DNA of 64,000 nucleotides from Escherichia coli (GTDB lineage: Bacteria > Pseudomonadota > Gammaproteobacteria > Enterobacterales > Enterobacteriaceae): NCBI RefSeq assembly GCF_030384885.1, contig NZ_CP128614.1; one strand, 5' to 3'. Every line of letters begins with the position of its first letter. Position 1 is the stretch's first letter. A program made the position numbers. Positions 12,001 to 18,000 of this stretch are shown piece after piece.

Positions 12001-15000
12001 GGGGAGTAAATAGTTCCTATGAACCAATCATGTCATGATTTTCCACATAACGTGGTGTCAACTACAAGGCATAATAATCTCAGACATTAGTTCGGATGCT
12101 TGTCTCGTAAACTCGAGCTTAAACTTTTAATACTTTAATTGTTATGGCTCAGTCGTTACTGAGAAAGCTAATTTTGTAAAATAACCACCTACCTTACAGG
12201 TGCTAACGGATGCGCAAGCCATTGAATTATCTGGAAAATTCAATGAGTTCAATGATTATTTTTTTCTTCTAATTTTTTTATGACATTCCCATGCTTTTTA
12301 CCACACCATGCTTGTTTCCTACCCATAATAAGCAAAACCATTGGCTCGGTCGCTTTCAGTCCGGTTCGCCAAGACCTTAGATCAGTACTTGATGGCTGTG
12401 GGAAATCTTCGGGATGCGTATGCCATTCGCCCAAATAGACTAGAAAACCGTCTGATTGCTGAAATAAGTCATCCACTTTTTGCTGGTGATGTTTGCTTTT
12501 TCTTTCTATTCGTAATCGCGATCTTATATCACCTGCGCCTGGTTCTGATATGTGGGTGATGACAATGTGTTTCCCACGACGTTCTCCAATAAGGATTCCT
12601 CCTGCCTCGGTACTGGCATGATGTAATTGACGATATAAATACAACCGCTGCACAACATCACTCATGATGACGACATGATTGTAATCATCATCGATAAAAA
12701 CTAACTCAGTTATGTTCATTGCAGATAGGACAGTTAGGCTGATGTGGCAAAAACTGAGGTTTCAGTGAACGTCCACCTTCTAACATATGCTCGTTGTAAG
12801 TCCATTTGAGGTCAGGCTCAAGAGTACTCAAGACTGCCTGTTGAGCCAAAGATGCCGTTATATTACTCACCGCCGCATCATAAGATGTGTATGTGCTACC
12901 ACAACTTTTATTTTTTTCACTTGAGATATCGAGGTTGTAAAATCGGGAATCGATACCATTATGGTATTTTGCTGGATTAGTAACCATACATCCATAGCAG
13001 CTTCGGCCATCATCGATTAAAACTTTGGATGCTCGTCCATTACCATCATTGAAGGCGTGGATAATAATAGGTCTTTGCTCACAGGGAATCTGTCTTACGA
13101 TAGCCGCAATACGCTTGGAAACAGGAGGTCGACCTGTTGCATCGATAATAATGTCATATTTTTTCATAACATCAATACTGATGGGGAATTGCTTATAAAA
13201 TCCTTCTACTCTGGTCTGTAAATGCACAGAGTCTTGAAGTTTTGTTGCGAGTGAGAGCGCTTTGGACCACCCAAAATCATGTGAAGGTAAAATGTGACGA
13301 CCAAAATTACTAGGACGGTAGATATCATCATCAAATAAATGCAGTAAACCTTTCCCACAACCGGCACCGTTTCGGAGTAACAATTCTGCAATATACCCAC
13401 CAATGGTTCCGCAACCAACTAAAGCTATACGCTTATCGGATAAGCATTCTTTGCTTCTCCTTTGGGCATTTCGGCTAAGGAGGGTTGCCATATCAGCGCG
13501 AACCACACCCAATCGTTTATATGAGGCGCATACATTTTTACCAGCTAACAATGTGGCAAGTTTGGACGTTGATTTTTTAGCTGATCTCTTGTGCCTTCTG
13601 AAATCAACAGCGTTAGTATTTAACTCAATATAGATGGCAAATATATCTTGATTGAAAATGTCGAATAAAAAAATATATCTTTTCTTCCCCTCTGTTGTGA
13701 TGTAGTGAACCACTCTGTCCCTGGCATTATGGTCCGCATTTTCTAGCCAGTCCAGTAATTCGCGGAATGAAGTCGGTGGCCATTTCATCCCAGCAAGACG
13801 ATTAGGGTTTACAGAAATATAATGAGTGTTGATAGAATAATTTTTCAAAGATTCTTGACGAAGGTATCTTTGATTAAGCCATTTTTTTAAAATGGTTTCA
13901 GAGTCCTCGGGAGAGGATTCTTGGACAGTTATATATTCTAGCCTGGGAGAACCATCAGGAAATGTTGACTCTGAAAACAGTGTCTTAAGTCTGATCCCGC
14001 GGCTTGCTTTTGATAAAATATATAAACTATCACTAGGTCGCCAGTAAGTTGCAAATTCACCTTCGAGTTCTCTCTTATCATTCAGGCCATTAGTAGCGGC
14101 TAAAACTGAATTAATCAGTGTTCGGTGAATCTGGGCATCGACTTCTTTGTACGTACCCTCAAGGTTGTTTGGATCCCAATCAGCTTCCAACTGCTCTACA
14201 TAACAGAGAATTCCTTCTTGGCTTATGTGAGGCATAAGGCGATCTCTGAACTTTTCAGGCAGATCAACTATGCAAGCTAATGGCAGTTCCGTAAAAGGAT
14301 CTGGCCGAATAACTAGTGCTACATTGAAATTTCCGGCTTCGGTTTCATATTCTTTCGTATAATAGCCTTTCAGGCGTTCCTGACTGTGTAGGAACGCCTT
14401 TTCAGGAAGTTTGCGGGCTAGCGTATAGCGATACCCGCACTCTATCATCATTTTATGGAGCCTTCCTTCCTCCATCAGCCGCTTACCATCGTGGTGTTAA
14501 TTTTTACAGGCGCCTGCTCCTTAGACGGGGAGATTTGAAATGCAGGAGCCGCAGCAATTGAAGTTATTAACGAGGCATTAGTTACTCGTTTTCCAAACGC
14601 ATTGTTTATCTTACGTAATGCTTCTTCCCTGCTACTTGAACTCTCTGCATCAAGCAAAATCCCCTCTAAATTTCTCATGGTTTCAACGATGGTTCTCTGA
14701 TGTACGTTATGATCGCATTCGGCAGGGAAAAGTAACTTTTCATCAGTATCGTCGGGACTTTCCAGACCGCGACAGAATTCATTAGGTAGTAATCTTGCAA
14801 CTAGTTTCATCGTCCCTGTGAGGTCTGAACCATTATGTGCTTCTCTGTCGAGGATGTTTACAACTGCAGCCATCAGGCTAATAGATGAAGGACCTCCCAC
14901 TTCCCATTGGGCATCTCTCCAGGCCTTCATAAAGCGGCAAATTGAACGGAGATGACCGCCAATACGCTTGCAACTATCATTAAACCAATCTTCAACAATT

Positions 15001-18000
15001 TTGGGGTCGCTGATCGACCACCTTCTTGCACCCTGACGCAGCGCTAAATTAACTTTGTCAGGTTCTACTAGATATGCCTCGCGCATATCCATGTTTGCTG
15101 ATAAAGACTCGAACATGGAGTCGGCACTTTTTATGATGTGTGCTGAATCGGCTGCAGTTTGTTTGGTCTGAAATTGCTCTTTGGGGATCGCATACATCGG
15201 TACGTCGATGTGTGTTTTCTCGTGAGGAATTTTGATGCGTCCGCAGGTGTTTTTTTCTTCATATACCCATCCATCGTTTTCAGCCTCTAACGATTTCAGT
15301 GACGTATCAACGAGCAGAAGAAGTAAGGTGTGCCCAATACTGGGTTCGGATTCAAAGACCGTCATTGGCATGTAGGTGCCGTCATCGATATCCATTTCCT
15401 GACCCGGGTGAAAAGGTCTGTTTAACGTATCGTATTGAAAACTCCCTTGGGTCCAGAAGCGAGGTTGAAATTTGATGAAGTCATCACGAGCTACATCTTC
15501 CATTTCAAAAATGAGTCGAGCGAGAGTCTCACGGTCTGAGGGAGAGAGGTAGCGAACATTAGTTTGCTCCAGTTTAAATCTAACGCTTTCAAGCGTCAGA
15601 GTTTGCTTTCTGGCGTCTGTAGCAATTTGACGAGCTTCTTTAAACACATCCCTCGTTCTTTCACGGACTTTCTGGCGAAGTGCTTTCAGTTTGTCGGATT
15701 CAGTCTTACCCAATTTTAGTTTACTGATTAAGCCATCCACACTATGGCTGTAGTAATTGTTAAAATCCCAACGCATCAGTGGATCTCCTGCGCATTCATG
15801 CGCTTAAAGGGTTTTGCGGGAGTAGTGAAAAAATTCTTAAGCTTCTGATCTTGAGCGAACTCAACATTGGCGAGCTGCCTTCCCCTTGCGCTTAAATTTT
15901 CAAGGGAACTCTTCGTGGCATTATCCAGGGTGATATCACTGGCTGCTTCATTGGGGATAATTTCATCCAGGTAGATGTAGTTATCCACCGCGTCATGGAG
16001 CATAAGCTCACGCTGTAGCATATTTTTATGAAGATGCTGGTTAGCTGTCATGGTTGTAAGCACCAGCCGTTTTCCCATACCCCAGAGACGACAGTAGCCA
16101 TTCCACCATGTTTTGCTCAACAACTTTGGACTAAGTGAATACTCTTCACCAACAGTACCGATATTAAGTATATGTATGTCTTTATGGGTGACGCTGAAGT
16201 CAGAATTCATATCCCTGAAAACTTCCAGAAGTCCTATGTAGCTGGGGTTGTTTGCGACCAGACCACCATCGGCAAAATATGCGCGGAGATCCTCACAATA
16301 GTGTGGGGAAAAATACGTTGGCGCGGCTGAGGTTGCCAGTGCGGCATCTATCAATTTAAGAGGCCCATCACGAGTAAAATCTGGGTTGTGTGGTGTCTTG
16401 AAAAACTGCGGTTTTCCTGTTGAAAGGTTTACTGCCGGGATCATTACTCGCCGGGTTAGGTCATTGAATGTGGTTTCAGCCCCAATCATTTCTTGAATTG
16501 TTTCGCGAAGAGGATGGCTGCGGTAGATAGGAGCACAAAGTGATCTAAGCAAGTTGGTCAGGGACCATCTTTTGGGAAAAATGTCATTCGCCCTATCGAA
16601 GAACACTCGTTCCAGCTCACGGGCACTTTTTCCTGTAGCAAGGCCGAGAGCTAATATGCCGCCTATTGATGTCCCTGTAATGAGGTCAAAATAATCGCCA
16701 ATTTTAATATCCTGATTAGGGTATTTGCTGGCAAGTATCCTCTCAATCTCAGAAAGGACACTGATCGTAAACATTCCCCTGGCCCCCCCGCCATTAAGAC
16801 TTAGTATCCGCACGCCATAGTGATTTCCTGCACTTATGTCAGACATAGCCAGCTCCCCTCGGAAAGATAGCTATAAGATATGTCCGCTTTTGTAGTTTTC
16901 AATGTACAAATAACCAGCAAATTTGAAATATGGTTAAAATAACTGCGTTATGGAAATTAATTGAATATTAATTCTTATTTTTGTTTTCCTGATGGAATTA
17001 AAATCTAAGTATGTCATTTTCTGGCTAATTTTACGAAAGGAAAATCCATGGCACATGCAGCCATCACCTCACTCAGTCTTGGCTACATGAAACAATCTTG
17101 GTGTTATCACCGGTGAGCAAGGAATTGAGAGCTAAGCCTTGAAACAGAGGCATATGTGGGAAAGTCAGTGGAAAAAATGATGGATCCTAATCTCCCTGTT
17201 CAATCGTAACGAATTATCGCCCTTTACTCTTTTCCAGATCCGACTTGGATGTTGTTCATCCAGGCCGCTAAACGTTGCTGTCGCCGGGCCATCTCGTCAC
17301 CATTTCTCCTGTCTGGCGGGCAAATTTTCCAAAGATTTATTCTCTCCCGACGGCATCATTTCTGATGAATTTGCCATCGATGAAAGGCTGATTTCTACTC
17401 CCAGCACGGTAAACACTTTGAACAGGCGTTCAATACTCGCACTGGCTGGATTGGCCTCCAGACGAGCATAGGTTTGCTGGGTCACACCTAACCTTTCAGA
17501 GACGTCTTTTTGCGTCAGCCCATTCGCTTTACGAAAGCCAAGCAGCATTGGACGCAATTGGGTAAGTATTTTTATCGGATAAACATTTTTCATCGTGGGT
17601 AGGCCTCTATATGGTTTGATACACCCTGTAAGCTGTGTTTACATAATTACACCTTAAAAGCTGTTAAATCAAGATTACAGCTTAAAAGCTGTTCAAAAGT
17701 CATAACAGCCTGTTGCTATTAATATGGACAGGAAGAATACGTAGCACTGGCAGACGCAAACCAGACTTGGATTGATAACGGCCACTGCTGTTTATTGTTG
17801 AATCCGTCTAACCTAATTCCAGTTCAACTATTGAAATAGAACCGGCATAGCGGATACATTACGCACGTTGTTACCTTGTATCATCAGGATGCCGTTGACT
17901 GTGTTTATCAGCCGTGAAGTCATTTCCAGAATCGTGCTTATCATCATGGCTGTTGCCGTGCTGAGCAGTTCGCTTATGGTAAAACCACAGGCTGTCTACA

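Follow-up and report, generated by a model that had tools for sequence, protein, structure and literature searches.

The 64,000-nucleotide (nt) stretch of Escherichia coli DNA analyzed here (contig NZ_CP128614.1; hereafter the window, to which all coordinates refer unless stated otherwise) encodes a four-gene operon of a type II anti-phage signaling system based on cyclic oligonucleotides (CBASS); the operon is located on an integrative island within an IncHI2 plasmid backbone. According to the open reading frame (ORF) listing of the window, all four genes lie on the minus strand. The operon consists of capV (15776-16846; 356 amino acids, aa), encoding a patatin-like phospholipase activated by cyclic GMP-AMP (cGAMP), which is the CBASS effector; dncV/cdnA (14475-15776; 433 aa), encoding a DncV-like CD-NTase (a nucleotidyltransferase resembling cGAS and DncV) with the C-terminus ...TTMVSG and a predicted 3'3'-cGAMP synthase activity; cap2 (12706-14475; 589 aa), encoding an E2-E1 fusion protein predicted to conjugate the cyclase C-terminus; and cap3 (12249-12719; 156 aa), encoding a JAB/JAMM isopeptidase predicted to remove the cyclase conjugate. 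In each of the four ORFs, ATG is the start codon and TGA the stop codon. The sequence TGATG, a 1-nt overlap, joins capV to the cyclase gene and the cyclase gene to cap2, while cap3 starts ahead of the cap2 stop codon with an overlap of 14 nt. A GAGGGGA Shine-Dalgarno sequence is present 5' of the capV start codon. The four genes are fairly described as a single, putatively translationally coupled transcription unit. Its promoter and 5' leader probably reside in the upstream non-coding region (16847-17199, minus strand), which is very AT-rich at approximately 16880-17010 and is co-linear with the operon in Klebsiella plasmids, where the block of 94% identity stops at 17199. A consensus scan identified a weak sigma-70-like site (16902-16875; 9/12 match) upstream of capV and a terminator-like hairpin (12186-12202, minus strand) with a 7-bp stem and a T-rich tail 47 nt past the cap3 stop codon. 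An Rfam search over 8000-30000 returned zero matches.

Each of the four proteins falls into the family expected for its position, with E-values of the family matches ranging from 1e-57 to 1e-274, far past chance. CapV matches the NCBIfam equivalog NF041079 (CBASS_lipase; 366 bits, cut-off 200) and, over its full length, the PADLOC phospholipase effector model (5.5e-107), and the cyclase matches the NCBIfam equivalog NF041078 (CBASS cGAMP synthase; 332 bits, cut-off 150) and, also full-length, PADLOC PDLC00821 (712 bits, 6.9e-215). Cap2 matches the PADLOC E1-E2 model PDLC00841 with residues 5-587 (911 bits) and contains the Pfam domains Prok-E2_B (13-148; 2.5e-21) and ThiF (339-525; 1.1e-16); no dedicated Cap2 model was reached in the NCBIfam search. 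Cap3 matches the NCBIfam equivalog NF050170 (260 bits, cut-off 200), TIGR02256 (ICE_VC0181, the family of Cap3 from VSP-I, the Vibrio seventh pandemic island I of V. cholerae; 190 bits) and the full-length PADLOC JAB model (3.6e-57). Among solved proteins, as compared by phmmer against PDB and BLASTP on PDB chains, CapV is 57% identical to the cGAMP-activated CapV 8zr9, and the cyclase shares 86% identity with the crystallized E. coli DncV (4xj6) and 60% with the DncV of V. cholerae (5go3). Cap3 is 69% identical to the Cap3 in 9ild, and cyclase residues 407-433 match the DncV peptide co-crystallized with that protein (9ild_B). For Cap2, the adenylation core alone (residues 344-459 approximately) aligns to the E. 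cloacae Cap2 structures 7tsq and 7to3.

The catalytic residues were compared with orthologous operons from Brenneria, Affinibrenneria, Rahnella, Shewanella, Vibrio aestuarianus, Aeromonas salmonicida, Aliivibrio fischeri, other vibrios and Klebsiella plasmids, and with Mangrovibacter, which supplied cap2-cap3 only; alignments included 9-11 orthologues per protein from eight other genera. Gene order is identical in all orthologous operons compared. CapV contains GGGARG19, GTSIG58 and DGG193, and GGGxRG, GTSIG and DGG are invariant in 9 orthologues. The cyclase contains QGSF110, (E)MDIDDG (DIDDG129-133) and HIDVP189, all invariant across orthologues, and with them the catalytic residues G111-S112, D129, D131 and D191. 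Its C-terminal MVSG is likewise invariant in 9 orthologues, and the terminal glycine is one of the two residues, Gly or Ala, that serve as the Cap2 substrate at this position (PMC10097602). In Cap2, GCGTIGG354-360, NFxRH390-394 (here NFGRH390) and DATG445-448 (DATGRPP) are invariant, as are the cysteines C91 (in an LCYV hairpin), C493xxC496, C525 (in SCG(S/N)T(Y/F)T, here SCGSTYT) and C582xxC585; C91 and C525 are unchanged in 10 orthologues. In Cap3, E38 and H100xH102x7S110xxD113 (HTHPEDxPxPSxxD) are invariant across orthologues. An initial annotation of this DNA had described four translationally coupled minus-strand genes in the classical order at 12249-16846, carrying patatin motifs, a GS...DIDDG active site, a ThiF-type E1 loop and a JAMM motif. 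All ORFs indeed lie at these positions, the junctions (overlaps of 1, 1 and 14 nt) bear out the wording of translational coupling, the profile searches it named as a check place every protein as anticipated, and every motif is present and conserved, with catalytic residues unchanged throughout the orthologue set; the one gap concerns the E1 catalytic cysteine of Cap2, for which the sequence gave no alignment to C548 of the solved E. cloacae Cap2.

The nucleotide product, the order of the biochemical steps and the anti-phage phenotype are predicted by analogy with characterized homologues, in particular the homologous operons of E. coli TW11681 and V. cholerae, for which a mechanism has been described (PMC10097602; bioRxiv 10.1101/2022.03.31.486616; PMC11153139). 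Upon phage infection, the CD-NTase (14475-15776) would synthesize 3'3'-cGAMP, a product suggested by its 60-86% identity to enzymes that make this nucleotide. cGAMP would then switch on CapV (15776-16846), resulting in degradation of the inner membrane and death of the infected cell ahead of phage release (abortive infection), as reviewed for the characterized systems, in which cGAMP activates CapV, the membrane is degraded and infection is aborted (PMC12409362). Cap2 is predicted to adenylate the C-terminal glycine of the cyclase, relay it via thioesters and conjugate the cyclase to target proteins, which would increase cGAMP output, and the JAMM isopeptidase Cap3 would undo this conjugation. 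In the homologous systems, the C-terminal glycine of the cyclase is required and its deletion phenocopies loss of Cap2, conjugation raises cGAMP, and E38 of Cap3 is catalytic and reverses conjugation (PMC10097602; bioRxiv 10.1101/2022.03.31.486616; PMC11153139). Every sequence feature that these steps require is present in the operon.

Among the closest described counterparts is the type II CBASS of E. coli TW11681 (capV-cGAS/dncV-cap2-cap3; PMC10097602), which contains the same four genes in identical order and encodes proteins of nearly the same length (cyclase 433 aa here vs 432 aa in TW11681, Cap2 589 vs 589 aa, Cap3 156 vs 156 aa). The cyclase C-terminal glycine, Cap3 E38 and Cap2 C13 and C493 are common to both, whereas the operon analyzed here represents a different allele that is carried by an island within an IncHI2 plasmid. 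The type II CBASS of E. cloacae (CdnD-Cap4-Cap2-Cap3) shares the regulatory logic of Cap2 and Cap3 and an alignable adenylation core (GxGxxG, NxxRH, DxTG), but it differs in its cyclase clade, its Cap4 nuclease effector and a cyclase that ends in alanine instead of glycine; similarity between the two Cap2 sequences (7to3, 7tsq) is confined to about 115 residues.

Taken together, the operon is a real, complete and ordinary type II CBASS that was already known, and we consider it about 90% probable that it represents an intact abortive-infection system of the DncV/CapV kind carried as cargo of a tyrosine-recombinase island. Five observations weigh against this interpretation. First, the assignment of product and defense rests on homologues that are 57-86% identical and not on this allele. 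Second, for the VSP-I CBASS, demonstrations of defense are so far limited to heterologous hosts (PMC12409362). Third, when a profile of five Cap2 orthologues was compared with PDB, only residues 341-459 aligned to 7to3, an interval that includes neither C91 nor C525 and thus does not place them opposite C109 and C548, the E2 and E1 catalytic cysteines of E. cloacae Cap2. Fourth, C13, C493 and C513 were named in the 589-aa Cap2 of TW11681, with C513 as the predicted E1 cysteine (PMC10097602); Cap2 of this operon, unlike that of TW11681, lacks Cys513, and its invariant crossover-region cysteine is C525, which may reflect either a difference in numbering or an allelic difference. Fifth, in a 99.4%-identical copy of the operon on the IncHI2 plasmid pMY490-mcr-9 (12000-17100 of the compared pMY490-mcr-9 locus), all four CBASS ORFs are broken (113, 459, 390 and 203 aa), and the PLSDB entry shows no proteins in this region. 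These breaks may represent either real decay, in which case the operon can be lost, or assembly or sequencing indels.

Genes on both sides of the operon might extend the system beyond its four components. Downstream, a co-oriented gene (10690-11913, minus strand) 336 nt away encodes a 407-aa protein with multiple N-terminal transmembrane segments and a C-terminal minimal nucleotidyltransferase domain (Pfam Aminoglyc_resit, 3.9e-7), which also weakly matches a CBASS four-transmembrane effector model (7.9e-5). Its family comprises 13 clusters, all from Enterobacterales, and occurs in variable regions of integrative and conjugative elements and plasmids, with CBASS nearby or not. In Dickeya and Pantoea it is found without any CBASS, and the 407-aa protein was rejected as a CBASS component on the grounds of such homologues. 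Furthermore, the terminator-like hairpin past cap3 and a promoter-like site ahead of the 407-aa gene (11968-11941; consensus scan) suggest that this gene forms its own putative transcription unit apart from the operon. The protein may instead be a single-gene defense candidate.

Upstream, a trio of genes encodes a C-protein-like helix-turn-helix (HTH) protein (18902-19213, minus strand; PADLOC Control_protein, 3.8e-25), a VspR-family protein (19313-19882, plus strand) and a ResIII helicase (19870-21264, plus strand; PHROG, 1.5e-39), the latter overlapping the VspR-like gene by 13 nt. Precomputed Pfam annotation assigns VspR_N (PF27213) and VspR_C (PF27192) to the identical product and to all 48 homologues of the VspR-like protein; a PDB search with it returned no match. 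The VspR-like ORF opens at GTG 19205, and its true start is probably ATG 19313, yielding 189 aa as in the homologues. VspR is reported to be a negative regulator of the V. cholerae CBASS (bioRxiv 10.1101/2023.04.04.535582), and the trio recurs with CBASS in Klebsiella plasmids, where it adjoins the operon, and in A. fischeri, where it is located within 6 kb. However, it also occurs in a CBASS-free Tn7-like element beside a type I restriction-modification system and GmrSD, no copy lies within 10 kb of the Brenneria and Rahnella orthologues of the operon according to searches with hidden Markov models (HMMs), and none was detected in the shorter Shewanella and Aeromonas flanks. In the window, the trio and capV are set apart by 1.7 kb of unrelated DNA. 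The VspR-like protein was ruled out as an obligate operon partner, being present in one of ten orthologous loci (HMM search with 139 family representatives) and, as part of the trio, in the Tn7-like element without CBASS. Since the trio occurs without CBASS and is missing near orthologous operons, it is treated as an independent neighbor that may constitute an uncharacterized module, and we consider it unlikely that either the 407-aa protein or the trio belongs to the CBASS.

The operon is carried by an integrative island of 20.4 kb (8720-29083) that interrupts a gene of the IncHI2 backbone. More than 1000 IncHI2 plasmids share the flanking regions 1-8719 and 29081-40000 at approximately 100% identity, and homology to nearly all of these ends at the island edges. 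In the uninterrupted plasmid pMCR1_025943, both edges are contiguous within a 794-aa gene of the phosphoadenosine phosphosulfate (PAPS) reductase family (DndC-like; 2171-4555 in the compared locus of that plasmid). The two halves of this gene are found in the window at 6887-8719, matching positions 147-398 of the DndC profile (C-terminal part), and at 29084-29635, matching positions 15-130 (N-terminal part). The backbone target at the junction is GTAGTC|GGTTGAG, and the island ends read TACTACCACACTG... and ...GTGTCATGGTA. The island (8726-29083) is 99.6-100% identical in Enterobacter chromosomes, in which it is located between gor and treF, and strain MY490 carries it both on its chromosome and on its IncHI2 plasmid pMY490-mcr-9. 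Further samples also contain the form inserted into IncHI2. At the left plasmid junction, an extra hexamer, ACAAAC, resembles the chromosomal right flank ACAAAT, suggesting that it represents donor-flank bases brought along from the previous site, as happens with Tn554. A related island in Klebsiella IncHI1B plasmids (7943-28678 of the compared locus in a K. oxytoca plasmid) contains cargo DNA that is 94% identical and a recombinase module with only 41-45% protein identity. Its insertion point lies in the homologous PAPS-reductase gene, about 200 bp away from the one in IncHI2, and its orientation is the opposite; the two related islands hint at either a preference for this gene or an exchange of cargo between two elements.

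The putative recombination module (21659-27345, minus strand) consists of a 459-aa tyrosine recombinase (25966-27345, minus strand; PHROG integrase, 7.9e-17; precomputed Pfam Phage_integrase) and co-oriented ORFs of 591, 720 and 146 aa. The 720-aa and 591-aa ORFs yielded nothing significant in Pfam; the former has weak integrase-like matches only, and none was found for the latter. The same four-gene module directly follows cap3 in Vibrio aestuarianus with 31-41% amino acid identity.

The layout of the island is reminiscent of VSP-I of V. cholerae, a 14-kb island (VC0175-VC0185) that contains an HTH protein (VC0176), VspR (VC0177), CBASS (VC0178-0181) and an integrase (VC0185) (PMC12409362). 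Both share the operon architecture, a cyclase with 60% identity and a Cap3 of the ICE_VC0181 family, and in both, HTH and VspR-family genes are located on one flank of the CBASS, and the opposite flank holds several ORFs with an integrase at their end (layout of VSP-I according to PMC12409362). Unlike VSP-I, the island is 20.4 kb in size, lacks AvcD/AvcI and additionally carries HEC-08, the transmembrane nucleotidyltransferase, a hipB remnant and YgiW, as well as a helicase gene in an operon with the VspR-like gene. VSP-I was compared by description only, and homology of the recombinase module derives from the V. aestuarianus island alone, in which DncV is 90% identical to that of V. cholerae; the island thus appears VSP-I-like by inference. 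As a possibility that falls somewhat short of probable, we tentatively propose that the operon is cargo of a previously undescribed VSP-I-like tyrosine-recombinase island of about 20 kb. This island would hop between the gor-treF locus of Enterobacter and IncHI-type multidrug-resistance plasmids, on which it would repeatedly target the DndC-like PAPS-reductase gene, perhaps with carry-over of the hexamer, and the transmembrane nucleotidyltransferase and the trio would potentially be uncharacterized defense or regulatory modules.

In agreement with its description as a known anti-phage system in the initial annotation, the exact proteins are already public under CBASS names. The four identical sequences are present in NCBI on 329, 349, 406 and 417 contigs, mostly from the Enterobacter cloacae complex and in some cases from Cronobacter, Klebsiella, E. 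coli and Salmonella, where they are named 'CBASS cGAMP-activated phospholipase', 'CBASS cGAMP synthase', 'E2/UBC family protein' and 'CBASS system CD-NTase/cGAS isopeptidase Cap3'. On two Klebsiella plasmids, the operon carries a CBASS label in RefSeq. Megablast with the operon as query returned no match among 5,426 complete E. coli genomes, and the allele is therefore not common in E. coli. We found nothing specific in the literature on CBASS on IncHI2 plasmids or on the island at 8720-29083.

The distribution also bears on the possible status of the operon as a silent or decaying passenger, whose reading frames are intact yet unexpressed or non-functional on this plasmid. Such a reading would be compatible with the weak promoter-like matches (9/12) as the only ones upstream of capV, with the interrupted ORFs of the 99.4%-identical pMY490-mcr-9 copy and with the presence of the operon on just 3 of 72,556 PLSDB plasmids. 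However, the pMY490-mcr-9 breaks may be assembly indels, all four ORFs in the window are full-length with every catalytic residue intact, and 7.5 kb of DNA in the operon region match a chromosomal copy at 100% identity. Furthermore, the occurrence of the exact proteins on hundreds of contigs would be unexpected for pseudogenes and implies purifying selection and spread. A silent passenger is consequently very improbable. We give equally little credence to a main selected role other than phage defense, either stabilization of the island or plasmid through addiction-like killing upon loss or stress, or a physiological cGAMP signaling function of the sort originally suggested for V. cholerae DncV, for which the location of the operon on a mobile island within a conjugative plasmid, the triggering of the V. 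cholerae CBASS by antifolates without phage (bioRxiv 10.1101/2023.04.04.535582) and the first association of DncV with intestinal colonization (reviewed in PMC12409362) could be cited, given that cloned homologous four-gene operons of E. coli and V. cholerae defend against phages (PMC10097602; PMC12409362), later work found no role of VSP-I in colonization (PMC12409362) and the sequence gives no sign of a toxin-antitoxin-like arrangement.

Cargo of the island other than CBASS is heterogeneous. A gene at 9085-10191 (minus strand) encodes a 368-aa HEC-08/DUF3644 candidate defense protein (PADLOC HEC-08, 5.7e-70) with a Cys-rich C-terminal half. An orphan hipB (17297-17593, minus strand), encoding a HipB-like HTH protein (PADLOC, NCBIfam), is part of an element at 17227-17692 in which three 17-nt operator-like repeats with 28-nt spacing precede hipB and a 22-codon hipA stub follows it, encoding MARRQQRLAAWMNNIQVGSGKE before its stop codon. 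This element is contained in a 1.7-kb piece (17200-18895) that has no counterpart in the Klebsiella island. The HTH protein was considered as a CapH-like CBASS regulator and ruled out, as it is HipB-like, is followed by the hipA stub and lies in the segment missing in Klebsiella. A His-rich 132-aa ORF and a YgiW/YdeI-type OB-fold stress protein are encoded at 17868-18709. Near the right end of the island (28450-29043), a fragment of an orphan MbcA/ParS/Xre antitoxin and a short remnant of an IS3-family transposase were identified. The initial annotation had regarded the AT-rich block surrounding the operon as defense cargo. The CBASS and the HEC-08 candidate agree with this view, but the remaining cargo is mixed, and island cargo is only partly defense-related. 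The AT-rich character is restricted to 8720-12248 (36.1% GC); the operon has a GC content of 43.3%, compared to 42.0% for the island, 45.6% and 44.3% for the backbone flanks and 43.8% for the window.

The operon itself adds nothing new to the known diversity of CBASS, and the modest gain from this analysis is that it delimits the mobile island and documents how it has inserted into IncHI plasmids. Conserved, unannotated neighbors on the island provide candidate defense genes that can be screened. The island marks defense cargo that has moved from Enterobacter chromosomes to IncHI2 and IncHI1B conjugative plasmids, the kind that carries mcr-type resistance. Since it resides on conjugative resistance plasmids, phage resistance can travel together with drug resistance, which bears on phage therapy of Enterobacterales.

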